Assembly (NCBI GenBank): GCA_016203535.1
Contig: JACQMO010000015.1
Location: 37,295 to 101,294 of the forward strand
DNA: 64,000 nt
Direction: 5' to 3'
Source of the DNA: Candidatus Uhrbacteria bacterium
Lineage (GTDB): Bacteria; Patescibacteriota; Patescibacteriia; 2-12-FULL-60-25
Positions 6,596 to 57,209 of the stretch are shown piece after piece. The notes beneath the pieces are model-generated. The model saw only the letters and a program-made list of their open reading frames with translations. It did no database searches and was not told the origin of the DNA. Every line of letters starts with the position of its first letter. The first letter of the stretch is position 1. A program made the translations under genes and the position numbers.

Positions 6596-9310
6596 ATGCC
6601 GGACACGCTCCAGCCTGTTGCGATTGTCTGCGCGTCCTGCGGCGGTGATCCGCGCGCCTCGCAAACCTGCAAGATGTGCGGCGGCGCGGGGATCGGCGTC
6701 GCATCGCCGGACGGGTTTCTCGTCTGGAGCGAGCCCGTCGACGAGGGAACGATTTTTCTTCGCAAGATGCGGCGAACCGTGACGCAGGCGTTCCACGTCC
6801 TTCTCTTCTCGCTCGGATTGGGGAGCGCCATCCCGCTCATCTGGCGCATCATGACGCAGGACGAATTGAACGTCGCATTACGAGCGGCATTTTGGACGGA
6901 CGGCCATTGGACGCTCACGTTGTTTTGGGCCGGGATTCTTCTTGATTGCTTCCTGGTTTTCCGGCTGATCGAATATTCCCGCGAGGAAAAACCGCTTCCG
7001 ACATGGAAGCTTTCCAAGGGACGCCTCGCGGCCTATGACGCGGCCGCGCCGTCCCGCGCCGCGCACCGGTTCGACGTCGGCCCGTTTTTTTCACGCGACG
7101 CGAGGGAAATTTTAGAAACCTCCTACACCATTTCCAAGGATTTGCGCCGCACGGAAATTCGTCCGGAAGTGTTATTCGCCGCCGCGCTGACGAGTTCGTC
7201 CGGAGGAATTTTCCGCGCGCGGCTTGCCATGGATTTCGACAAGGTGAAGGAACCGCTCGCAAAATTCCTCGTGGCGGAATTGCCCGGCGGCAACCCGCCG
7301 ATCGCGCTCTCCCGCGAACTGAAACGGACGCTCGCGCTCGCGTATGCCGATGCGCGCTCCGAACGCCGGCAGTATGTCGGGCCGATGGAGTTGCTCCTCC
7401 AATCGTTTAAGGACAGCCCGAAACTGCAGGAATTGTTCGACCGGTTGGGATTCCCGCCGCTCCACGTCCAGCGTGTTGCCGAATGGATCCGGCTTCAGGA
7501 GCAGCTTCGGGAAGACCACCAGCGGTTCGTGGCGTTAGCTGCACTCAAGCCGAAATCCGGCATGAACCGCGCGATGACCGCACTTCAGGCGCCGCTTCTT
7601 GACAGATACAGCCAGGACCTCACGCTTGCCGCGCGCGCCGGTCAGTTGTCACCGCTCGTTGGCCGGGCACGCGTGTATGAGCTGATGCTGCAGGGGATTG
7701 AAAGCGGACGCCGGTCGGTTGTTCTGGTCGGGGAAACCGGCGTAGGAAAAACCGCATTGGTGGACGAGCTCGCGCGGCGGATGGTCGAAGAAGACGTGCC
7801 TCCGGAATTGTTCGACCGCCGGCTCGTCTCCATCAACCTGGCGCAACTCGTGGCCGCCGGCGACCCATCGCTCGCGGCTGAACGCCTGTTCGCGATGCTG
7901 CAAGAGGTCGGCGTGTCCGGAAATATCATTCTCGTCGCCGAGGGAATTGAGGCGCTTACGGGATTCGGTGGCGGCGGCCCGATGGATTTGGCCGAGATGT
8001 TCGCGTCCGAACTCCAAAAGGGCTATTTCATCACCATCGCGACGACGACGCCGGACGCGTGGACCAGCCACCTCGAACGCCGCACGCTCGGAACGAAACT
8101 CATTCGAGTGGACGTCCCGCCGCTCGAGGCGGACGATGCGCTCCGCGTACTCATGGCGAAAAGCGGCCGCATCGAAGTGGGGCAGAAGGTGTTCTGCTCG
8201 TACGCGGCGCTGGAAAAAACCGTCGCCCTCGCGCTGCGCTACATCCACGAGATCGCGTCGCCGGAAAATGCGTTGAACATCCTGCGCGAGGCCGCGGTCC
8301 GTGCGCGAAAAGCACGCGGCGAGCGGACGTTCGTCACGGCCGAGGACGTCGCCACGGTCGTGCAGGAGAAGACGCGGATCCCGGTCGAAGCCGTCGGCGC
8401 CCATGAAACCGAAAAACTTTTGTCCCTCGAAGACCATCTGCACGCGCGGCTCATCGGCCAGCACGAGGCGGTCACGGCGGTGGCGCAGTCGCTCCGACGG
8501 GCCCGAGCGGAATTGCGTGAAGGGAAGCGGCCGATCGCGAACTTTTTGTTCCTCGGCCCGACCGGCGTCGGAAAGACCGAACTCGCAAAGTCGCTCGCGG
8601 CCGAATATTTCGGCGACGAGAAGCTCATGATCCGCCAGGACATGTCGGAATACCAGGACCGTTCGTCCGTCACGCGGCTCATCGGCGCGCCCGGCGACCA
8701 GCGCGGCGGACTGCTCACCGAAGCCGTTCGACACAATCCGTTCTCGCTCATCCTGCTCGACGAAATCGAAAAAGCGAATCCGGACATCTTGAACCTGTTC
8801 CTGCAAGTCATGGACGACGGCCGGCTGACCGATGGCGTCGGCCGAACCGTGGATTTTACGAACGCCATGGTCATCATGACGTCGAACGCCGGGACGTCGT
8901 TCATCCAGGAAGAAACGACGAAGGGCACGCCGCTCGCGACGATCAAGACCGCGCTCATCGAACGGGAGTTGAAGGGTCTTTTCCGTCCGGAGTTCCTCAA
9001 CCGATTCGATGGGATCATCCTGTTCAAGCCGCTCACGCAGGATGAAGTGGCGCAAATCGCCTGGCTCCAAATCAACGCCATCGCCAAACGGCTGGAGGAA
9101 AAGGCGATCACGTTCACTGCGGAAGACACCGCCGTGGAACAGCTCGCCCGCGACGGGTTCGATCCGCTGTTCGGAGCTCGTCCGCTCCGGCGCGTGATAC
9201 AGGACAAGGTGGAAAACGGTTTGGCGGACCTTCTGCTCCGACAAGCCGTCGGTCGCGGCGATCGCGTCCGGTTGCAAGCCGACGGGACACTCAAGGTGGA
9301 AAAGGGGTAA
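6596..9310 (+). CDS. Clp/Hsp100-family double AAA+ ATPase with N-terminal CxxCxGxG zinc-finger and TM helices
   Basis: Two P-loops (GETGVGKT, GPTGVGKT), Walker B-2 LILLDEIEKA, sensor/arginine-finger GARPLRR and a Clp-N-like repeat. The N-terminus carries CASCGG..CKMCGGAG plus two hydrophobic helices. I placed the start at ATG 6596, 2 nt after the upstream stop. Confidence 0.9.
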   Translation: MPDTLQPVAIVCASCGGDPRASQTCKMCGGAGIGVASPDGFLVWSEPVDEGTIFLRKMRRTVTQAFHVLLFSLGLGSAIPLIWRIMTQDELNVALRAAFWTDGHWTLTLFWAGILLDCFLVFRLIEYSREEKPLPTWKLSKGRLAAYDAAAPSRAAHRFDVGPFFSRDAREILETSYTISKDLRRTEIRPEVLFAAALTSSSGGIFRARLAMDFDKVKEPLAKFLVAELPGGNPPIALSRELKRTLALAYADARSERRQYVGPMELLLQSFKDSPKLQELFDRLGFPPLHVQRVAEWIRLQEQLREDHQRFVALAALKPKSGMNRAMTALQAPLLDRYSQDLTLAARAGQLSPLVGRARVYELMLQGIESGRRSVVLVGETGVGKTALVDELARRMVEEDVPPELFDRRLVSINLAQLVAAGDPSLAAERLFAMLQEVGVSGNIILVAEGIEALTGFGGGGPMDLAEMFASELQKGYFITIATTTPDAWTSHLERRTLGTKLIRVDVPPLEADDALRVLMAKSGRIEVGQKVFCSYAALEKTVALALRYIHEIASPENALNILREAAVRARKARGERTFVTAEDVATVVQEKTRIPVEAVGAHETEKLLSLEDHLHARLIGQHEAVTAVAQSLRRARAELREGKRPIANFLFLGPTGVGKTELAKSLAAEYFGDEKLMIRQDMSEYQDRSSVTRLIGAPGDQRGGLLTEAVRHNPFSLILLDEIEKANPDILNLFLQVMDDGRLTDGVGRTVDFTNAMVIMTSNAGTSFIQEETTKGTPLATIKTALIERELKGLFRPEFLNRFDGIILFKPLTQDEVAQIAWLQINAIAKRLEEKAITFTAEDTAVEQLARDGFDPLFGARPLRRVIQDKVENGLADLLLRQAVGRGDRVRLQADGTLKVEKG

Positions 9311-26498: not shown

Positions 26499-27908
26499 AT
26501 GGAATTGAAACAACTCAAACGTGTCCACCTGATCGGCGTCGGCGGGATCAACATGAGCGCCGTCGCCAAGCTTCTTCTCGCAAACGGCGTGAAGGTGTCC
26601 GGCTCCGATGTCGCCGAGAACGAACAGACGACGCGGCTCGCGGAACGCGGGGCGATCATCAAGATCGGCGAGGCGGCGGAACATATTCCGGAGGGTTGCG
26701 AGCTCGTCATTACCACGTCCGCCGCGCCGATCACGAACAAGGAGCGGATGGCCGCGGCCGAGCGGAAGATCCCGGAACTGACGAATTTCGCGTTTTTGGG
26801 CCGGTGGTTTTCCGATGCCCAAACCGTCGTTATCGCCGGAACACACGGGAAAAGCAGGACGACCGCCATGCTGGGATTGATGCTTGAAAAAGCGGGGAAG
26901 GACCCGACCGTGATTGTCGGAAGCAAAGTCCCGTCGTTTCCGGACGGGAATCTTCGGCTCGGACGATCGGATCTGTTCGTGGTCGAAGGGGACGAATACG
27001 CCAAACATTTTTTGGAATTTCGTCCGCACGCGGTCATTCTGAACAACCTCGAGCTCGATCACACGGACACCTTTCCGACGATCAACGCGATGTTGGAGGC
27101 ATTTCATGAGCTCGTCGGACAGGTGAAGGACGGCGGGATCGTCGTCGTCAACACGGCGGACGAACGGCTTGCGCGGCTCATCGAGACGGAACGGGAATCG
27201 CTTGTCGCGCGCGGCATCACCGTCATCCCGTTCGGGGCCGGGGAGCATGCGTGGAAGGTCGAGAGCGCGCAACAGGAAGCGGCAAGACCGGTCACCATGA
27301 CGCGCGGCAGTGAAACGATGACGTTCACCATTTCGGTCCCCGGCGCGTTCAATGCGATGAATGCGGCCGGCGCCGCGCTCATGGCGCAATCGCTCGGGGC
27401 AACGCACGAGGACATCGCGGCGGCGTTATCCGGATTTTCCGGGATTTGGCGCCGGTTCGAATATCTCGCGACCACCCGTGGCGCTCCGGTCTATTCCGAT
27501 TACGGACATCATCCGACCGCCGTGGCCGCGACGCTCCGGGCCGCGCAGGAAACGTTCCCGAACGACCGCATCGTGCTGTGTTTCCAACCGCACCACCGCA
27601 ATCGGACGCGGGCGTTATTTCTTGATTTCGTCACGTCGTTCGACCTCGCGGAAGCGCTCATCCTCTGCGAGATCTACGAGGTGAGCGGCCGCGACGAGGA
27701 TGCGGACAAGCATATTTCGTCGCGCGACTTGGTGGATGCGGTCATGCGGCACGACGCTGACCGCGGCGTGAAACGTCCGCTCGAATACGCGCCGGATCCC
27801 GCTGCGGCGGTCCGTCGGACGCTGGAACTCGTCGAGTCCACGGACGTTGTGATTTTCATGGGAGCGGGGGATATTGATGGCGAGGTGAGGAAGGTTGTGA
27901 AGCCGTGA
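26499..27908 (+). CDS. murC: UDP-N-acetylmuramate--L-alanine ligase
   Basis: VHLIGVGGINMSAVAKLL, AGTHGKSRTTAM and the Mur ligase central and C-terminal domains. Confidence 0.92.
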   Translation: MELKQLKRVHLIGVGGINMSAVAKLLLANGVKVSGSDVAENEQTTRLAERGAIIKIGEAAEHIPEGCELVITTSAAPITNKERMAAAERKIPELTNFAFLGRWFSDAQTVVIAGTHGKSRTTAMLGLMLEKAGKDPTVIVGSKVPSFPDGNLRLGRSDLFVVEGDEYAKHFLEFRPHAVILNNLELDHTDTFPTINAMLEAFHELVGQVKDGGIVVVNTADERLARLIETERESLVARGITVIPFGAGEHAWKVESAQQEAARPVTMTRGSETMTFTISVPGAFNAMNAAGAALMAQSLGATHEDIAAALSGFSGIWRRFEYLATTRGAPVYSDYGHHPTAVAATLRAAQETFPNDRIVLCFQPHHRNRTRALFLDFVTSFDLAEALILCEIYEVSGRDEDADKHISSRDLVDAVMRHDADRGVKRPLEYAPDPAAAVRRTLELVESTDVVIFMGAGDIDGEVRKVVKP

Positions 27909-27930
27909 GCCGTGTACCGTGAACCGTATG
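27903..27930 (+). repeat. Tandem heptamer array CCGTGAG|CCGTGTA|CCGTGAA|CCGTATG
   Basis: Read directly. The first unit contains the murC TGA stop and the last unit contains the murB ATG. Confidence 0.85.
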
Positions 27931-28911
27931 AATAAATTGTCTGAAGAAGCCATTACGTCATTTCTTCAAATAGTTCCAACGGCGAAGCGCGACGAGCTAA
28001 TGTCGAATCACACGTCCGTGAAGATCGGCGGGCCGGCGCGTTTGTATGTCGTCGCGCCGTCCAACGCGGAATTGTTACGGATCATCGGGGAAGCCGCGCG
28101 GCTGAACATTCCGTTCGTCGTCTTCGGCGGCGGATCGAATCTGCTTGTCGCCGATGATGGATACGAAGGTGTCGTGATCCAGGCGGCCGACCGTTCGATG
28201 CGCATCGAGGGGGAACGCGTCATCGCCGCGTCAGGCGCGCCGACAGGCGTCGTCGCTCGCGCCGCAGCCGAAGCCGGTCTTGAAGGGTTCGAATGGGGGA
28301 TCGGCGTGCCGGGAACGATCGGCGGCGCCACCTATGGCAACGCGGGATGTTTCGGCGGTGAGATGAAGGACGTCGTCTCCGCCGTGGAGACGTATGACCC
28401 GGCTCACGGTTCACGGCGAACGTTTTCGAATGCCGACTGTCGTTTCGGGTATCGAGACAGTCGGTTCAAACATGATCCGTACATCCTTCTTGAGACAACG
28501 CTCCTGTTGCGTCCCGGCAATCGCGAAACGGCCCTGACGCGGATGACGGAGGTGATGGAAAAGCGGAAGGCGTCACAGCCGCAAGGAAGTTTTAGCGCGG
28601 GTTGTCTGTTTAAGAATTATGAATTTCAGGACGGTTCCGCGCTCGACATCCTGAAGCGGCATGGAGACGGGATTCCCGAAACGTTTTTGACCCAAAAACG
28701 GATCCCGGCCGGTTGGCTGATCGACCGTCTCGGACTGAAAGGGACGAGTATCGGACAGGCGCAGATCAGTCCGGTGCACGGAAATTTTTTCGTGAACCGC
28801 GGCGGCGCGAGGGCGCAGGACGTCCTCGCGCTTTCGTCGTTCGTGAAAATGAAGGTCCGCGACGAGCTTGGCATTCTGCTGGAGGATGAAGTACAGCTAA
28901 TAGGCTGGTAG
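27928..28911 (+). CDS. murB: UDP-N-acetylenolpyruvoylglucosamine reductase
   Basis: FAD-binding PCMH domain (GGPARLYV..VVFGGGSNLLV) and C-terminal GSFSAGCLFKN / SPVHGNFFVN. A GTG at 27919 is an alternative start. Confidence 0.9.
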   Translation: MNKLSEEAITSFLQIVPTAKRDELMSNHTSVKIGGPARLYVVAPSNAELLRIIGEAARLNIPFVVFGGGSNLLVADDGYEGVVIQAADRSMRIEGERVIAASGAPTGVVARAAAEAGLEGFEWGIGVPGTIGGATYGNAGCFGGEMKDVVSAVETYDPAHGSRRTFSNADCRFGYRDSRFKHDPYILLETTLLLRPGNRETALTRMTEVMEKRKASQPQGSFSAGCLFKNYEFQDGSALDILKRHGDGIPETFLTQKRIPAGWLIDRLGLKGTSIGQAQISPVHGNFFVNRGGARAQDVLALSSFVKMKVRDELGILLEDEVQLIGW

Positions 28912-28930
28912 GCCGTAGGCAAGTAGCCAG
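28901..28930 (+). repeat. Tandem 7-8-nt array TAGGCTGG|TAGGCCG|TAGGCAAG|TAGCCAG
   Basis: Read directly; it includes the murB TAG stop at 28909-28911. Confidence 0.8.
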
Positions 28931-36167: not shown

Positions 36168-37057
36168 ACATCATCGCCTGGCGAAAAATTTGGTATGTCT
36201 TCTCCGGTCTGCTCATCGCCGGATCCGTCGCGGCCGTCGCGTCGTTCGGGTTGAAGCAGGGGATCGACTTTACGGGCGGTTCGCTCCTGTCGGTCCGGTT
36301 TGAGGCGGCGCGCCCGTCTCCCGTCGAGGCGGAACAGGCGCTCGCCGCGCTCGATCTCGGCGCGATCACGGTCCAGCCCGTCGGGGACACGGACATGAAT
36401 TTCCGGCTGAAAGTGTTGGAGGAGCAGACGCACCAGGACGTCGTCCGGATCCTGAACGAACGGTTTGCGACGACGACCGAGCTCCAGTTCAACTCCATCG
36501 GCCCGTCCATCGGAAAGGAGCTGCGCCAGAAGTCCATCACCGCGCTCGTCATCATCTTTCTCTCCATCCTCGCGTACATCGCCTGGTCGTTCCGAAAAGT
36601 ATCCGCACCGATCCAGTCCTGGAAATACGGCGTCATCACGATCGCCACCGCGTTCCATGACGTGATGCTGCCGATCGGGGCGTTCGCCATCCTCGGGAAA
36701 TACGCGAACGTGGAGATCGGAACGCCGTTCATCGCTGCGATCCTCACCATCATGGGATATTCGATCAACGACACGATCGTGGTCCTCGACCGCGTGCGGG
36801 AAAACCTCCAGCGCGGAAGCGGGACGTTCGAGGACATTGTGGAACGGTCGGTCAAGCAGACGATGCTCCGATCCTTCAACACCTCGATGACGACGCTGCT
36901 TTCCCTTGTCGCGGTGTATTTTTTCGGCGGCGCTTCCATCCGGGACTTCGCCCTTGCGCTCATCATCGGAATCGCGACCGGAACCTATTCTTCGATTTTC
37001 ATCGCCTCTCCGCTGCTCGTCACGTGGAATGCGTGGAGCCGTAGGAAGAGGTCGTAG
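36164..37057 (+). CDS. secF: Protein translocase subunit SecF
   Basis: ATGA overlap with secD. GIDFTGGS and the 6-TM SecF core (GYSINDTIVVLDRVRE). Confidence 0.92.
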   Translation: MNIIAWRKIWYVFSGLLIAGSVAAVASFGLKQGIDFTGGSLLSVRFEAARPSPVEAEQALAALDLGAITVQPVGDTDMNFRLKVLEEQTHQDVVRILNERFATTTELQFNSIGPSIGKELRQKSITALVIIFLSILAYIAWSFRKVSAPIQSWKYGVITIATAFHDVMLPIGAFAILGKYANVEIGTPFIAAILTIMGYSINDTIVVLDRVRENLQRGSGTFEDIVERSVKQTMLRSFNTSMTTLLSLVAVYFFGGASIRDFALALIIGIATGTYSSIFIASPLLVTWNAWSRRKRS

Positions 37058-37081
37058 GTCGTAGGCGGTAGGTCGTAGCGA
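37041..37081 (+). repeat. Tandem heptamer array ...GTAGGTC|GTAGGCG|GTAGGTC|GTAGCGA
   Basis: Read directly. TAG occurs at 37042, 37055 (the secF stop), 37062, 37069 and 37076. Confidence 0.85.
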
Positions 37082-37126: not shown

Positions 37127-38443
37127 ATGGAACAATTCCTGATCGGCTGGACGTCGTTTCTTGATCTCGCCGGCGAATCTCCGTTCGCCGCGATGTGGGT
37201 TGTGTTTTTGAACGGCGGGTGGATCGCGTTTACCGTCGCATTTTTCTGGGCGCTGTCACGGTACTGGCTGAATCTCCGCCAGATCGTGTTCGGATCGAAA
37301 AAGGAGTGGATGCTTCTCGCGATTACCATTCCGCGCATGACGGAACAGACCCCGCGCGCCGTGGAAAATATTTTCGCCCACCTGGCCGGCGCGCACAGTC
37401 CGGCGAGCTGGAAGGAAAAATGGATCGACGGGAAAACGCAGGACCAGATCAGCATGGAGATCGTGTCCATCGAAGGGCGCGTGCGGTTCATGGTCTACAC
37501 GACCCGTCCGCAGCGGGATCTCATCGAAGCGACGATCTACGCGCAGTATCCCGACGCGGAAATCGCGGAGGTGGAGGATTACACCCTCCAGGCGCCGACG
37601 CTCTATCCCGATCCCGAATGGGACGTGTTCGGAACGGAGATGATCCCGGTGAAGAAAACCGACGTTTATCCGCTCCGGACCTACCATGAGTTCGAAGACC
37701 AGGTGTCGGGAGAATTCAAAGATCCGATGGCGGTGATCCTGGAGAACCTTTCGCGGCTTGGTCCGGGCGAACAAGGGTGGTACCAGATCGTCATTACGCC
37801 GATCGACCAAAAGGCGTTCCGCGAGAAGGGGGAGATGTTCGTCAAGAAATTCACGGGCCAGAAGATCGAGGTGAAGAAGGGGATCATCGAACAGATCTTG
37901 ACCTATCCGTTCACGCTCATCGGAAGTTTCCTCCAGGAGATGGGCGTCATCCCGGCGCCGACGCCGCCGAAAAAACAGGAAGACCCCTTCGGCCGCGTCA
38001 TGAAGCTCACGCCGGGAGAGCGCAAAGTTCTGGAAGCCGTGGAGAACAAGATTTCGAAGATCGTCTTCCTGTGCAAAATCCGGTTTATCTACGTCGCGAA
38101 ACGGGAGGTCATGAAGAAGTCCCGCATCATCGGTCCGTTCGTCGGCGGCATCAAGCAGTTCAACACGAACGACATGCAGGCGCTCAAGCCGGAAAGCAAG
38201 CGCGTGGGCGTCAACAGCACGTTGTGGTTTTTCAAGGACCAGCGGAACGGTAAGCGCAAAACGCGCCTCATGCGCGCCTATCGCGCGCGGTCGAACTGGG
38301 TCGGCATCCCGGCGTTCCACTTGAGCATCGAGGAGTTGGCGAGCTTGTGGCATTTCCCCATCACCGTGCAAACAAAGGCTCCGCAACTCCAACGCACGGA
38401 AGCAAAGCGCTCCGAACCGCCGATAAACCTTCCGTTCGGGTAG
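37127..38443 (+). CDS. Hypothetical membrane protein (2 N-terminal TM plus large soluble domain), partner of the downstream ATPase
   Basis: The extended -10 TGcTATCAT (37106-37114) lies upstream. TMs are AAMWVVFLNGGWIAFTVAFFWAL and WMLLAITI. No family name recalled with confidence. Confidence 0.7.
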   Translation: MEQFLIGWTSFLDLAGESPFAAMWVVFLNGGWIAFTVAFFWALSRYWLNLRQIVFGSKKEWMLLAITIPRMTEQTPRAVENIFAHLAGAHSPASWKEKWIDGKTQDQISMEIVSIEGRVRFMVYTTRPQRDLIEATIYAQYPDAEIAEVEDYTLQAPTLYPDPEWDVFGTEMIPVKKTDVYPLRTYHEFEDQVSGEFKDPMAVILENLSRLGPGEQGWYQIVITPIDQKAFREKGEMFVKKFTGQKIEVKKGIIEQILTYPFTLIGSFLQEMGVIPAPTPPKKQEDPFGRVMKLTPGERKVLEAVENKISKIVFLCKIRFIYVAKREVMKKSRIIGPFVGGIKQFNTNDMQALKPESKRVGVNSTLWFFKDQRNGKRKTRLMRAYRARSNWVGIPAFHLSIEELASLWHFPITVQTKAPQLQRTEAKRSEPPINLPFG

Positions 38444-38472
38444 CTAATAGCCTGCCAGCCACCGCTTCCCCC

Positions 38473-50226: not shown

Positions 50227-50566
50227 GGGAAAGGTGTTCGGCCGCGAAAAAGGGCCGCGGGACGCGATGCTCCGGAATCTGGCGCAGTCGGTGATTTTGT
50301 ATGAGCGCGTGAACACCACGCTTCCGAAGGCGAAGGCCGTGCGGTCGATGGTGGAAAAACTGATCACGACCGGTCGCGAGAAAACGCTCACGTCCCGTCG
50401 GAAATTGGCGCGCGTCCTGACCGTCGAGTCCGCCGTCAACAAGGTGCTGGAAGAACTGGGACCCCGGTATGCGGCGCGGCCGGGCGGGTATACGCGTATC
50501 ATCAAGCTCGGACGCCGGGAGGGCGACGGCGCGGACATCGCGCAGCTTCAACTCATTAAAGACTAG
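50210..50566 (+). CDS. rplQ: 50S ribosomal protein L17
   Basis: MRHRNKGKVFGREKGPRDAMLRNLA... Confidence 0.95.
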   Translation: MRHRNKGKVFGREKGPRDAMLRNLAQSVILYERVNTTLPKAKAVRSMVEKLITTGREKTLTSRRKLARVLTVESAVNKVLEELGPRYAARPGGYTRIIKLGRREGDGADIAQLQLIKD

Positions 50567-50601
50567 CTACGGTCTACCGTCTACGGTCTATTGTCTATAC
50601 G
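50567..50601. repeat. Tandem heptamer array CTACGGT|CTACCGT|CTACGGT|CTATTGT|CTATACG
   Basis: Read directly. It fills the whole rplQ-rplM spacer, from the TAG stop to 1 nt before the ATG. Confidence 0.9.
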
Positions 50602-50602
50602 T

Positions 50603-50986
50603 ATGTCGTGGAACAAGAAACGGGGGATGCCGAAGGTGGAGCGTACGGTCCACGAGATCGACGCGGCCGGGAAGGTCGTGGGTCGTCTGGCGACGGACAT
50701 CGCGAAGCTGCTCATGGGGAAGCATAAGCCGACCATGGTTCCGCATATCGACGCGGGAGATATCGTCAAAGTGATGAACGCGGCGAAGATCGTTTTCACC
50801 GGAAAGAAGTGGGAGCAGAAAAAGCACTTTCGGAGTTCAAACCGACCCGGCGGCATCACGGCGACGCCGGTTTCCGTGCTTCGAGAGACGAACCCCGGAG
50901 AGATTCTCCGGCATGCCGTGAAGTACATGCTTCCGAAGAACCGCACGCAATCCGAACGGCTCAAACGATTGATTATCGTGAAATAA
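50603..50986 (+). CDS. rplM: 50S ribosomal protein L13
   Basis: VHEIDAAGKVVGRLATDIAKLLMGKHKP... Confidence 0.93.
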   Translation: MSWNKKRGMPKVERTVHEIDAAGKVVGRLATDIAKLLMGKHKPTMVPHIDAGDIVKVMNAAKIVFTGKKWEQKKHFRSSNRPGGITATPVSVLRETNPGEILRHAVKYMLPKNRTQSERLKRLIIVK

Positions 50987-50988
50987 CT

Positions 50989-51522
50989 ATGACTCCGACA
51001 CCCAAAAAGACCGCTGCCAAACCGAAAGCCGCGAAGGCCGCGCCGAAGAAAACAACGAAGAAAGCTCCGGCAAGCGATGTGACGGTCGTTGCGGAGTCCG
51101 AGAACATGGCTGCGGCGGAAAACGCGAAAGGCGGATCGTTCATCCCGGCCCTCGGCCGCCGGAAGACCTCCATTGCGCGCGTTCGGCTGATCAAGAACGG
51201 AAAGGGGATCATTACGGTGAACGGGCGCGAGATGGAAAAATATTTCTCCACGTACGAACTCCGCGATGACGTGGTAAGCCCGCTTCGGGCCGTCGGGCAG
51301 GAGACGACGCTCGACGTGAGCGCTCTCGTGAGCGGAGGCGGAATCCGCGGTCAGGCGCAGGCCATCCGGCTCGCCGTCGCCCGCGCGCTAACGGAATTGA
51401 ACCCGACGTTCCGCGTTGCGCTGAAGAAGTTGGGATACCTGACCCGCGATCCGCGGAAGCGCGAGCGGAAGAAATTCGGCCGCAAAAGCGCCCGCCGCAG
51501 TCCGCAGTGGAGCAAGCGGTAA
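50989..51522 (+). CDS. rpsI: 30S ribosomal protein S9 (Lys/Ala-rich N-terminal extension)
   Basis: GRRKTSIARVRL..G.G.I.VNGR...GGG..GQA.A...A.ARAL...RDPR..ERKK.G..KARR..Q.SKR. Confidence 0.93.
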   Translation: MTPTPKKTAAKPKAAKAAPKKTTKKAPASDVTVVAESENMAAAENAKGGSFIPALGRRKTSIARVRLIKNGKGIITVNGREMEKYFSTYELRDDVVSPLRAVGQETTLDVSALVSGGGIRGQAQAIRLAVARALTELNPTFRVALKKLGYLTRDPRKRERKKFGRKSARRSPQWSKR

Positions 51523-54794: not shown

Positions 54795-54815
54795 CTACCG
54801 TCTACCGTCTATCTC
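54795..54815. repeat. Tandem heptamer array CTACCGT|CTACCGT|CTATCTC
   Basis: Read directly. It is the entire 21-nt spacer between the TAG stop (54792-54794) and ATG 54816. Confidence 0.9.
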
Positions 54816-57209
54816 ATGAAAGACTTCCGCATTGTCATCGTCTCCTGGAATGTCGAGAGACTTCTCGAGCGATGTTTGAAATCTTTGCCCGAGGCGTGTG
54901 ATGGATTGGATTGGGACGTCGTGGTTGTAGATAACGCTTCGTCCGACGAGAGCGCAAAAAAGGCCGAGGGGCTCATGAGCGAATGGGCAAATGGGCATGT
55001 GATCATAAATCCAGAAAATCGAGGGTTCGCGAAAGCCTGCAATCAGGGGATCGATGGGTATAACGCGCGGTACGTATTGCTTTTAAATCCAGATACCGAA
55101 TGTCCACCTGGATCGCTTTTTCATTTCATCAACGCCGCCGACTCCACAGATAGGCGGACGTCCGACGTCCGACATTCGGCGGACGTCGGACGTCCGACAG
55201 GGATACTTGGGCCACGGCTTGTAGAAACGGACGGGAAACATCAACCGAGCGTCCGCGGTTTTCCCAACGTCTGGAATCAGATGGGGATTTTGTTGAAACT
55301 GCATCATGTCTTGCCGTGGTTCTTCCGGAAGTATTTCAACGGAAGCGAGCAAGTGATGGGCGCCTGTTTTTTGATCCGTCGCGAGCTTCTCGAGCAAATC
55401 GGCGGGTTGGATGAACGCTATTTCATCTGGTTTGAAGAAGTTGATTTTTGCAAACAAGCGAAAGCGCGCGGCTGGGAGGTGCGGTATGAACCGTCCGTCA
55501 CGGTGATCCACCACGGCGGGCAATCATTTGCACAGGTCATGTCAGCTAAAAAGCAGGCGATGTTCAACGATAGTTTGAAAAAATATTTCAAGAAATGGCA
55601 TCCGGGATGGCGGGCTTGGCTGATTTCTCTCGTATGCCCGGCTGCATTGCTGGAGACGAAAATTATTGGAATTGTCTCTTCCAATATAGTTCTCGCATGG
55701 GTTCTCGGGATCGCGCTATTCGAGCTCGTATCGCTTGCCACGGTGTTCAATCCGGTTCCGCGTGCCGTGGCCACGGTCGCGGTTGGACTGACTGTTTTCA
55801 TGGCGGCGATTCGTCGGCCATCGTTCGCGCTCGCCATGCTGCTTGTCGAACTCATGATCGGCTCAAAAGGCGCTTTACTCAAGATTCCGAATGGATGGGA
55901 GGTGGATGGTGGCATTTCCCTCCGGATCGTGATAACGGCCGCTTTTCTGCTCGGCTGGCTGTATCGGCGGACGTCGGACGTCCGCCGATACGTCCGACAA
56001 TTGTCGGACGTCCGACGTCCGACAATTGGAGGTATTTCCAAGCCGTGGGTCGCTTTGGCGGCGTTATGTATGTGGGGGGTCATTCGAGGTTTCTGGCTAA
56101 AAAATCAGTTTCTCTTTCAAGATGCCAACGCCTGGGGATATCTTATTTTGCTGCTTCCGGTTCTCAATATTGCTCGGCGTGACTCAAAAAATCTTTTGCA
56201 CTACACGACACAGGCGGCTATAGCAGCTCTTTTGTGGGTTCCCATCAAAACTCTGACCTTGCTTTATGTCTGGTCTCACGGCATCAAATCGCTCTCGCAG
56301 CCGCTGTATCTTTGGGTTCGGCGAACAGGCGTCGGCGAGGTTACTCTCGTGACCGGAAATTTATTCCGTGTGTTCATACAATCGCAGGTGTACGCGATCT
56401 TCGCTTTACTCTTTGCGGCGGCGTATGTTGCACGAAGCAAACGGGTGACGCGGAACGGGGGCCCCCCAGCGACCGGAGACCAGCAGGTCGAGGACGATGG
56501 GGGTGGGCCGCGGCAGGACCCGTCATTTTGGGTGATCCCTATCGCTTCCGCCGGTTCCCTCCTCATCAGTCTCTCCCGCAGTTTCTGGGTGGGGTTCATC
56601 TGCGGCATCGCTTGCTTCAAATTGCTTGCCTGGCGGGCGAAGTTCTCCTTCTCACAATTTTGGAGCGTGGGATGGAGATTCGGCGCCGGATTCTTCGCGG
56701 CTGTCGGCCTAATTTTCGCGGTCGTCGCGTTCCCGTATCCGCCTGTCGATGTCGGATCGCTGGCGACGCTGTTCGGTTCGCGCGGATCCGTTTCGGACGC
56801 GGCGGCTGAAACGCGATGGAGTCTTCTTCCCGCCGTCATCTACAAAATCAAACAAGCGCCGATCCTTGGTTCCGGCTTCGGCGCGACCATCACGTATCAC
56901 TCGAAGGATCCTCGGATTCTCGCAAAAAATCCGTATGGCCTCTACACCACCTACGCGTTCGAGTGGGGCTGGCTGGAGCACTGGATCAAATTCGGGATTC
57001 TCGGTATTCCGGTGATGCTCTGGCTGCTCTGTTCCATCGTCCGACGTGCATGGAGATCCGACGGGCCGTGGTGGGTACGCACGGGATTCGTTGCATCCAT
57101 CGTCTCACTGGGCGCGCTCCACGTTTTCACGCCATATCTGAACCATCCGCTCGGCTTCGGACTCCTGCTCGCGGCGGAAGGATGGATCGTGGCCACGAAG
57201 CGCGAATAG
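54816..57209 (+). CDS. Fusion protein: GT2 glycosyltransferase (N-terminal) plus O-antigen-ligase/Wzy-like polytopic membrane domain
   Basis: N-terminus VIVSWN...VVVDNASSD...LLLNPD...FIWFEEVDFC is rhamnosyltransferase-like GT2. At least 10 TM helices follow, with a Wzy_C-like loop. It contains two in-frame palindromic inserts. Confidence 0.8.
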   Translation: MKDFRIVIVSWNVERLLERCLKSLPEACDGLDWDVVVVDNASSDESAKKAEGLMSEWANGHVIINPENRGFAKACNQGIDGYNARYVLLLNPDTECPPGSLFHFINAADSTDRRTSDVRHSADVGRPTGILGPRLVETDGKHQPSVRGFPNVWNQMGILLKLHHVLPWFFRKYFNGSEQVMGACFLIRRELLEQIGGLDERYFIWFEEVDFCKQAKARGWEVRYEPSVTVIHHGGQSFAQVMSAKKQAMFNDSLKKYFKKWHPGWRAWLISLVCPAALLETKIIGIVSSNIVLAWVLGIALFELVSLATVFNPVPRAVATVAVGLTVFMAAIRRPSFALAMLLVELMIGSKGALLKIPNGWEVDGGISLRIVITAAFLLGWLYRRTSDVRRYVRQLSDVRRPTIGGISKPWVALAALCMWGVIRGFWLKNQFLFQDANAWGYLILLLPVLNIARRDSKNLLHYTTQAAIAALLWVPIKTLTLLYVWSHGIKSLSQPLYLWVRRTGVGEVTLVTGNLFRVFIQSQVYAIFALLFAAAYVARSKRVTRNGGPPATGDQQVEDDGGGPRQDPSFWVIPIASAGSLLISLSRSFWVGFICGIACFKLLAWRAKFSFSQFWSVGWRFGAGFFAAVGLIFAVVAFPYPPVDVGSLATLFGSRGSVSDAAAETRWSLLPAVIYKIKQAPILGSGFGATITYHSKDPRILAKNPYGLYTTYAFEWGWLEHWIKFGILGIPVMLWLLCSIVRRAWRSDGPWWVRTGFVASIVSLGALHVFTPYLNHPLGFGLLLAAEGWIVATKRE
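55152..55199 (+). repeat. In-frame palindromic heptamer element (4 x GACGTC at 7-nt spacing)
   Basis: AGGCGGACGTCCGACGTCCGACATTCGGCGGACGTCGGACGTCCGACA encodes RRTSDVRHSADVGRPT. It contains the 14-nt perfect palindrome GTCGGACGTCCGAC (55185-55198). Confidence 0.85.
55962..56029 (+). repeat. In-frame palindromic heptamer element, second copy
   Basis: 29-nt palindrome TATCGGCGGACGTC-G-GACGTCCGCCGATA (55962-55990), 20-nt perfect palindrome CGTCCGACAATTGTCGGACG (55991-56010), then TCCGACGTCCGACAATTGG. It shares 21-nt and 19-nt blocks with the first copy and encodes RRTSDVRRYVRQLSDVRRPT. Confidence 0.85.

Follow-up and report, generated by a model that had tools for sequence, protein, structure and literature searches.

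Heptanucleotide tandem arrays in the gene spacers of a Candidatus Uhrbacteria genome and related Patescibacteria

A 64-kb stretch of DNA from Candidatus Uhrbacteria bacterium (assembly GCA_016203535.1, contig JACQMO010000015.1; this whole stretch is called the window below) carries short tandem arrays of degenerate 7-nucleotide (nt) units in the spacers between its genes, including that between rplQ and rplM. A sequence-only reading had listed nine such loci. The period-7 arrays are real, and wider in occurrence than that reading supposed: they are found across the clade and also inside an open reading frame (ORF). They are probably heptanucleotide simple-sequence repeats of the type described as long simple-sequence repeats (LSSRs) or STRR repeats, born in place and changed in unit number by slippage.

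Period-7 arrays in the window and in related genomes

The window has a G+C content of roughly 60% and is ~93% coding, and most of its gene-gene spacers are a few nt only. To score arrays, we used self-comparison diagonals (+1 for a match, -1.5 for a mismatch, with runs of period 1-3 removed) and a segment score of at least 10; dinucleotide shuffles served as the null for window counts. By this measure the window holds 8 period-7 arrays, compared with 0.30 +/- 0.46 in the shuffles. Periods 4, 5, 8, 10, 11 and 13 give 0-1 arrays each, and period 14 is a harmonic of 7. Tandem Repeats Finder recovers the same arrays as the segment score.

Head-to-tail copies of a 7-nt unit, at least three in each case, make up five strong spacer arrays (6104-6134, 27901-27927, 37049-37078, 50567-50598 and 54795-54811), two moderate ones (1914-1941, with 14 of 21 matches at lag 7, and 28901-28930, of mixed period 7/8) and three strong arrays within ORF 54816-57209 (55157-55198, 55965-55982 and 56003-56023). 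The last three were absent from the sequence-only reading. The sequences and coordinates it quoted check out at all nine loci, and it placed the arrays correctly relative to stops and starts (the murC TGA, the murB ATG, the murB and secF TAG codons, and the spacers filled from end to end). Seven of its nine loci are real arrays; the other two, at 38441-38454 (4 of 7 matches) and 62627-62640 (two units), are at chance level, as 37 two-unit matches of this strength are observed in the window against 25 expected. The excess over shuffled controls that it anticipated holds.

For comparison, we collected 80 loci from genomes and 80 from metagenomes, all around rpoA; the window RpoA is 72-87% identical to that of metagenome-assembled genomes (MAGs) labelled Candidatus Uhrbacteria or Patescibacteria group. 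The first 80 genome loci, which total 1.31 Mb, contain 131 period-7 arrays, compared with 5-25 for periods 5, 8, 10, 11 and 13. With self-trained gene predictions for the window plus these 80 loci (~1.4 Mb), the density of period-7 arrays is 604 per Mb of intergenic DNA versus 39 per Mb of coding DNA, an enrichment in the direction that had been proposed; other periods reach 7-106 arrays per Mb of intergenic DNA. Arrays are a patchy trait. Of 92 non-redundant related loci that span 10 kb or more, 52 have at least one array and 24 at least three, so the suggestion that arrays are specific to this lineage is not supported. No period-7 array was found in a control region of E. coli (50 kb, with the same ribosomal operons). 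Intergenic autocorrelation shows a small bump at lag 7 (0.279 versus ~0.270), which is gone after the discrete arrays are masked; the signal is therefore one of discrete arrays and not of diffuse periodicity. The ad hoc gene predictor misses some genes of atypical composition and sometimes calls starts too far downstream, and for this reason the key positional results were redone with homology-defined boundaries of ribosomal protein genes. In one relative (locus L098, 5042-5099) eight perfect copies of CCAGCCG stop 3 nt short of a start codon; an array so regular, unlike the degenerate ones of the window, suggests recent expansion.

Short tandem repeats can be mis-assembled, and an assembly or polishing artefact must be considered. 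A Logan contig of 1.4 kb, built independently from run SRR12113383, carries the rplQ-rplM array base for base, which shows that this array is not an artefact of the present assembly. Arrays of this class recur in dozens of MAGs and metagenome contigs that were assembled independently in different studies, and they are degenerate, whereas collapse or expansion errors should give perfect repeats. We accordingly give an artefact virtually no chance. The phasing of units on CGT or ACG, in contrast, was rejected as a signal. These triplets occur at 39.7 per kb in intergenic and 50.2 per kb in coding DNA; being no denser between genes than within them, they mirror genome composition.

Origin, position and alternative explanations

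The clearest view of how arrays change comes from closely related genomes. Loci L024 and L106 share 99.78% identity across 20.7 kb and differ by just two insertions or deletions of at least 4 nt, each of them one 7-nt array unit (TTGCCCT and TTCCTAA), and a 14-nt indel that separates L090 from L091 (99.89% identical) consists of two TTACGAA units within an array. At greater distance (L001/L002 and L012/L013, ~84-90% identity) whole arrays have been gained or lost, or the unit sequence has changed at the same site. A slippage by-product was among the roles suggested in the sequence-only reading, and as an origin it is supported by the two near-identical pairs. We found no second strain of the window's own species: an exact-protein look-up gave one 1.4-kb contig with an identical array, and the metagenome scan gave nothing above 87% RpoA identity to the window. 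Unit polymorphism is for this reason shown in relatives instead.

The birth of arrays can be seen at orthologous junctions. At 50567-50602, between the genes for L17 and L13 (both with Pfam matches), the entire 36-nt rplQ-rplM spacer is array: the TAG stop is followed by CTACGGT, CTACCGT, CTACGGT, CTATTGT and CTATACGT, and then by the ATG. In most Uhrbacteria-like relatives the same junction reads TAA-(1-5 nt)-ATG, for example TAA CCGT ATG in L020. In L001 the spacer is 33 nt and the array has a different unit. Across seven homology-defined ribosomal protein junctions in ~100 loci, spacers have medians of 4-21 nt where there is no array and of 35-100 nt where there is one. At murC/murB the units are variants of the stop/start junction itself; over 27903-27930 the murC TGA lies in the first unit (CCGTGAG) and the murB ATG in the last (CCGTATG). 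Taken together, unit indels between strains and array birth in minimal spacers mark the arrays as probable slippage-driven heptanucleotide simple-sequence repeats. Local tandem duplication, slippage and point-mutational decay fit the strain and junction comparisons, and an imported element does not. We infer that slippage is the molecular mechanism by which units are gained and lost.

This suggests a simple scheme. An array would arise in place when a 7-nt stretch of the local stop/start junction is duplicated in tandem, and replication slippage would then add or remove whole units. Because 7 is not a multiple of 3, arrays would build up in spacers; in coding DNA only stop-free blocks of 21n nt would survive, such as the 42-nt insertion in the GT2-Wzy gene described below. 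Translation would filter persistence: an array that lies over the 3' end of a gene must supply a stop, whether from TAG, TGA or TAA units. Since such an array persists only if the frame is terminated, TAG units at 3' ends are most easily explained by this filter on survival. Arrays next to starts would be kept G-poor and weakly folding on the mRNA strand, as are all initiation regions of this clade, which is without Shine-Dalgarno (SD) sites. An array together with its reverse complement, as in about a third of cases, would form an intercistronic hairpin, one of which would precede the terminator-like hairpin after the ftsL-like gene. Filtering at the level of translation may thus be the cause of the strand and stop biases.

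Position and strand composition depend on the flanking genes. Where these are co-directional, many arrays adjoin the stop of the first gene or the start of the second. Among the 55 arrays in spacers of 100 nt or more, 17 have their end no further than 12 nt from a start, where uniform placement would give 4.7 (p = 2e-6), and another 11 begin within 12 nt of a stop (p = 0.006). Upstream of rpsM, with homology-defined starts, the array ends no more than 15 nt before the start in 14 of the 18 loci that have one within 300 nt. On the mRNA strand, pre-start arrays contain 9% G, with C exceeding G in 23 and G exceeding C in 8; among post-stop arrays G exceeds C in 21 and C exceeds G in 7. A reverse-complement partner lies within 70 nt of 34 of 112 intergenic arrays (3.8 for shuffled units), usually in the order stop, G-rich arm, loop, C-rich arm, start.

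The assertion that none of the arrays folds into a hairpin is contradicted by the array at 6104. Its arms (6101-6132 and 6139-6170) are 75% complementary and fold at -25 kcal/mol (z = -3.2), with a terminator-like hairpin next to them. The other spacer arrays of the window fold as their shuffles do (z from -0.94 to +0.9; -0.54, no significant RNA structure, for the array at 50567). Pre-start arrays across the clade fold very weakly, and marginally less than dinucleotide shuffles (positive z in 28 of 40, median +0.4, p = 0.026). We therefore rejected the idea that periodicity enforces unstructured RNA, as its effect is marginal and, apart from the 6104 array, the window arrays behave like shuffles.

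The units themselves are diverse. Consensus units in the window are CGTGTAA, AGCCGTG, AGGTCGT, CTACGGT/CTACCGT, TAGACAA and GACGTCC, and they are mostly 2-4 positions apart; the exceptions are the arrays at 50567 and 54795 (distance 1) and the in-ORF set. The unit of the 1914 array belongs to the reverse-complement family of these two. An inverted array pair of this unit family (TAGACGG... / ...CTACCGT CTATTGT) is present in L109 at 3426-3522, in a genome whose RpoA is 74% identical and at a different locus from its window counterparts. Array units are AT-richer than their own spacers, with AAT, TAA and ATT enriched ~2-fold and CTA 2.35-fold on the sense strand. Judged by their sequences, these unit families may leave room for some sequence preference, though not for a single recognition motif. 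A scan of viral contigs for (TAGACNN)3 returned at least 120 matches, which is about the chance level for 15 specified bases and thus uninformative.

The arrays lie in a clade that appears to initiate translation without SD sites. GGAG, GAGG or AGGA occurs at -20 to -4 in 12.2% of 2008 predicted clade genes, compared with 12.1% of random 17-mers and, by the same procedure, 57% in E. coli; almost no gene in the window has such a site. It is true, as the sequence-only reading noted, that the arrays are without SD sequences, but this is not specific to them, given that the clade as a whole is at the random rate. Position -1 is T in 60% of clade genes, and G falls to 15.7% over -10 to -1. Since initiation regions are depleted in G clade-wide, pre-start arrays follow, and somewhat exaggerate, a general rule. 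It is plausible from these patterns that they act as an unstructured leader or spacer for SD-independent initiation or for re-initiation after termination, a role in which they would be at most tolerated or mildly useful.

Several observations sit uneasily with an origin by slippage alone. Polymorphism was seen in relatives only, and not in the window's own species. Neutral slippage by itself leaves unexplained both the 6- to 90-fold preference for 7 nt over other periods that are not multiples of 3 and the crowding of arrays against starts in long spacers. To our knowledge, a polymerase-footprint effect is the sole published proposal for the 7-nt unit length. Unit pairs at a distance of at most 1 make up 18% of pairs within a genome versus 3.6% between genomes, and the TAGACGG/CTACCGT family recurs in L109; together these hint at sequence preference or at copying between sites. 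Periodicity reduces RNA folding only marginally beyond what composition does.

Among the alternatives, the idea that units are designed round stop triplets, to make a ribosome terminate ahead of the next gene whichever frame it reads, draws on the observation that sense-strand stops cover all three frames in 46 of 102 arrays, as against 3.8 for control spacer segments, and on the several window arrays that hold the real stop codon of the upstream gene. Three-frame coverage, however, is arithmetic: it follows from period 7 and a unit that happens to contain a stop. A sense-strand stop is found in 75% of arrays clade-wide and in 75% of same-length control segments from neighbouring spacers, a comparison on which stop-codon design of the units was rejected. 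The remaining 25% have no sense stop, among them the arrays at 50567 and 54795, where stops are antisense only, and in 13% both strands are free of stops; the trinucleotides enriched in array units do not include TAG. The statement that each unit holds a stop triplet is accordingly correct for the window if either strand is counted, and fails for the sense strand of these two arrays and as a distinction from control DNA. Frame-independent translational insulation is highly improbable as their function. It is also very unlikely that the arrays are remnants or halves of small palindromic mobile elements (REP- or MITE-like) that spread between sites and genomes. The inverted pairing of ~30% of arrays, the TAGACGG/CTACCGT family at three window sites and in the inverted pair of L109, and the occurrence of in-ORF GACGTCC palindromes twice in one gene would all suit such an element. 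Counter to this, units are built from local junction sequence, strain changes are single-unit indels and not insertions of whole elements, no conserved termini, target duplications or associated transposase accompany the arrays, most arrays are unpaired, and unit families are mostly private to one genome. Particular arrays could instead be protein-binding sites at the DNA level (operators, iterons or promoter elements). MraZ-type regulators reportedly bind series of short direct repeats upstream of their own operon, and the window has an array upstream of mraZ (4023-4062) as well as a 9/12 match to the sigma70 consensus (TAGACA-17-GACAAT) in the array before the uvrC-like gene. Yet the period upstream of mraZ is 7-8 nt where known MraZ boxes have 10 nt, the promoter match is weak, most arrays lie between the tightly packed cistrons of an operon, a place where neither a promoter nor an operator would be expected, and the strand-composition bias tied to gene direction points to the RNA level. 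We consider this reading unlikely.

Selection is the more serious alternative, and one that is compatible with a slippage origin, from which it differs in the upkeep of arrays. Pre-start arrays would in this case be selected substitutes for SD sites, either unstructured standby or re-initiation platforms or cooperative sites for an OB-fold protein (for example a cold-shock protein or S1) that covers 7 nt of single-stranded RNA and would keep the initiation region open or tune it. Arguing for this are the crowding of arrays against starts (17 of 55 and, upstream of rpsM, 14 of 18), a depletion of G beyond that of generic leaders (9% versus 15.7%), folding slightly below that of composition-matched shuffles, and the absence of SD sites from the clade. 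In Bacillus subtilis, CspB binds pyrimidine-rich heptamers of the consensus GTCTTTG/T and strongly prefers C at position 3 (PMC1904285); each heptamer is bound by one protein according to PMC4679880. In the register GTCTACC, GTCTACG, GTCTATT, GTCTATA, the array at 50567 has GTCT in common with the CspB consensus, a likeness that may serve as a lead and not as a test. The same proposal has been made for the TAACTGA and Nostoc repeats discussed below. Against selection, units vary widely within one genome; most relatives have no array at the corresponding junctions and 40 of 92 loci have none at all, with nothing visible in its place; a good many arrays follow a stop, lie in mid-spacer or show the opposite strand composition; the folding effect is weak; and the window, the 64 kb of the genome that was searched, contains no gene with a cold-shock domain. 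On balance, we regard such selection as less likely than not. A still more specific form, in which the arrays are a device for ribosome recruitment and regulation in SD-less Patescibacteria, is doubtful: each unit would be a putative site for an OB-fold chaperone (Csp- or S1-like), a filament next to the start would keep the initiation region single-stranded or repress it, and slippage would rapidly and heritably tune the output of single cistrons within operons. If this were true, the excess of heptamers in other SD-poor lineages (Cyanobacteria, Bacteroidetes and Beggiatoaceae) would have the same cause.

Individual arrays and their neighbours

The coordinates of arrays and of features associated with them are collected in Table 1. 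Pfam searches of the flanking genes gave matches to UvrC-like, MraZ, Mur ligase/MurC, MurB, HPF, SecF, L17, L13, two GT2 and PriA proteins, which back the gene names assigned in the sequence-only reading.

Table 1. Period-7 arrays and associated features in the window, with folding z where available.
Feature	Position	Strand	Description
Array CTACGGT, CTACCGT, CTACGGT, CTATTGT, CTATACG	50567-50601	+	Score 15; relatively G-poor; no sense-strand stop
Array CTACCGT, CTACCGT, CTATCTC	54795-54815	+	Score 10; no sense-strand stop
Post-stop array (AGGTCGT)n	37049-37081	+	secF stop TAG (37055-57) inside; sense strand G-rich; score 13; z = -0.94; SecD_SecF_C match
Array CCGTGAG, CCGTGTA, CCGTGAA, CCGTATG	27901-27930	+	murC-stop/murB-start junction; score 12.5; z = +0.9; Mur ligase and MurB matches
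Array CGTGTAA, CGTCTAA, CGTGTAT, CGTGTAA, CGTCAGA	6104-6138	+	Begins 5 nt past the ftsL-like stop; score 14; 5' arm of hairpin
Degenerate inverted copy of the 6104 array	6139-6170	+	3' arm of hairpin
Terminator-like G+C stem, then T run	6177-6206	+	Directly after the hairpin of the 6104 array
Moderate array TAGGCTGG, TAGGCCG, TAGGCAAG, TAGCCAG	28901-28930	+	murB stop TAG (28909-11) inside; 11/23 matches at lag 7, 13/22 at lag 8
Moderate array TAGACAA, TAGACGG, GAGACCG, TAGACAA	1914-1941	+	Divergent region upstream of uvrC-like gene; 14/21 matches at lag 7
Claimed two-unit array TAGCTAA, TAGCCTG	38441-38454	+	4/7 matches; chance-level
Claimed two-unit array at priA start	62627-62640		2/7 matches at lag 7, 5/6 at lag 8; chance-level
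GGTACC(W) array, period 7/8, self-complementary	4023-4062		~255 nt upstream of mraZ; z = -2.9
In-ORF palindromic heptamer element, GACGTCC/GACGTCG units	55153-55198	+	z = -6.05
Second in-ORF palindromic heptamer element	55965-56026	+	Same GT2+Wzy gene; z = -8.3

Like the array at 50567, which ends 1 nt before the ATG, that at 54795-54815 fills a whole spacer, here the 21 nt between two GT2 glycosyltransferase genes, and it ends 0 nt before the ATG. The second of these genes, ORF 54816-57209, is a conserved glycosyltransferase/O-antigen-ligase-like gene (GT2 and Wzy_C) in which the GACGTCC/GACGTCG elements sit. The element at 55153-55198 amounts to a 14-residue in-frame insertion (42 nt, or 6 x 7); aligned orthologues have a gap of ~14 residues at this point and lack the insertion. 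In the L002 orthologue (58% identical), a degenerate period-7 counterpart occupies the site of the element at 55965-56026.

The ~470 nt from the ftsL-like gene to the probable start of a Clp-like gene hold the array hairpin, the terminator-like hairpin and an unassigned ORF (6168/6237-6593). The Clp-like gene (6293-9310, with a probable start near 6575-6614) encodes a ClpB/ClpC-like double-AAA+ protein with an N-terminal CxxC...CxxC segment resembling a zinc ribbon. The weak sigma70-like match in 1914-1942 ends 9 nt before the ATG of the uvrC-like gene; should it be a genuine promoter, transcription from it would yield an almost leaderless mRNA. MraZ is encoded at 4318-4746, and the 1.1-kb low-GC gap upstream of it (3212-4317) contains no confident gene and no Rfam match. 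The self-complementary array within this gap may be something other than the rest, for example a DNA-level repeat of the MraZ operator type, or just another array.

In the window as a whole, searches with Rfam covariance models at gathering score and scans for tRNA and tmRNA gave no match. Stretches of lower G+C (0.50-0.53, compared with ~0.60-0.62 elsewhere) lie at ~14.0-18.2, 32.0-34.0 and 54.0-56.0 kb; their ORFs have atypical codon usage and mostly no Pfam match, and they may be acquired DNA. The rpsI gene (50989-51522) is predicted to encode an S9 of 177 amino acids, with an apparent N-terminal extension rich in Lys, Ala and Pro.

Comparison with described heptanucleotide repeats

The sequence-only reading knew of no described element class that fits. 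Intergenic heptanucleotide tandem repeats have, however, been described in cyanobacteria, Xanthomonas and Beggiatoaceae. Among the long simple-sequence repeats of many bacteria, units of seven nucleotides are the commonest (Mrazek, Guo & Shah 2007, in the summaries of PMC4679880 and PMC4692102). According to the same summaries, heptamer LSSRs dominate among units of 5-11 nt, are enriched between genes and phylogenetically patchy, and have been attributed to polymerase slippage. The present arrays share with LSSRs, so far as these summaries describe them, the tandem 7-nt units, the excess over other periods, the intergenic bias and the polymorphism in unit number, the last as seen in relatives. 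Unlike LSSRs as summarised there, they are short (3-8 units), degenerate and located in the tiny operon spacers of a streamlined genome without SD sites. Our literature search found no paper that ties heptamer repeats to Patescibacteria or the Candidate Phyla Radiation (CPR).

The closest parallels differ from one another. Cyanobacteria have STRR repeats in Calothrix (PMC4692102) and contiguous heptamer repeats near start codons and promoters in Nostoc PCC 7120 (bioRxiv 10.1101/2022.06.06.494920). As in the genomes studied here, there are several units per genome, positions near starts or promoters, both orientations and some inverted pairs, and a translational or regulatory role has been suspected. 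Cyanobacterial arrays can be far longer, with copy numbers in the tens, and draw on a small set of units that recur often, whereas units in Patescibacteria are mostly private to each spacer. In marine Beggiatoaceae, 2-6 units of TAACTGA lie directly upstream of starts, including those of ribosomal protein genes, in the place of an SD site (MacGregor 2015, PMC4679880); copies occasionally occur within ORFs, and binding by Csp or S1 has been hypothesised (PMC4679880). Arrays of the present set occupy the same place, within a few nt upstream of starts. TAACTGA, however, is one dominant conserved unit with related heptamers being rare, while Patescibacteria have many unrelated units, many of them after stops or paired in hairpins. 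The G-rich GGGAATC and GGGGA(T/C)T repeats of Xanthomonas and Nostoc (Rehm et al. 2015, PMC4692102) are likewise intergenic heptamer arrays that vary in length and sequence at the same site between close relatives and in part form inverted pairs. Those units can form G-quadruplexes, and units in Patescibacteria are without runs of G. Neither TAACTGA nor GGGAATC arrays are present in the window, and no single conserved heptamer of this kind occupies most sites, the window units being mostly 2-4 positions apart.

Other classes are more distant. The paired arrays and the GACGTCC elements are strongly folding palindromes, and in this they resemble the intergenic REP/BIME elements and the in-ORF Rickettsia palindromic elements. 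REP/BIME identity was nevertheless rejected: the arrays have neither an element sequence nor a length that is conserved, they vary in steps of 7-nt units, and most of them have no self-complementarity; no RAYT-type transposase is associated with them, although RAYT genes were not searched for genome-wide. CRISPR identity was rejected because the units are 7 nt and contiguous, as opposed to repeats of 24-48 nt with unique spacers, and identity with a known RNA family because no Rfam model matches in the window.

The old and unexplained regularity that 7 nt is favoured among the longer tandem repeats of bacteria can thus be extended to the CPR. The short spacers of CPR genomes make the arrays easy to see, and their birth can be read directly, from a junction of 1-5 nt to an array of 36 nt. 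The absence of SD sites, together with G-poor arrays that crowd starts, connects heptamer repeats with SD-independent initiation in a concrete way that can be tested. As strain markers (variable-number tandem repeats), the arrays are ready for use in uncultivated Patescibacteria. Gene callers that depend on ribosome-binding-site motifs need to take them into account, and in proteins they are a source of in-frame insertions of 14 residues.

A final comparison is with the simple-sequence repeats of phase variation, such as the phase-variable 7-bp repeats upstream of hmw1A in Haemophilus influenzae (PMC8262952). Both show slippage-type changes in unit number in non-coding DNA upstream of genes. 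Phase variation, however, concerns surface and virulence genes, whereas the genes here belong to housekeeping operons (rplM, murB, secF, rpsM), and the degenerate arrays of Patescibacteria are less prone to slippage than the repeats of contingency loci. Looking across all of these systems, the arrays are not a new class of element; they extend a known and functionally unexplained class of heptanucleotide repeats to a new phylum.

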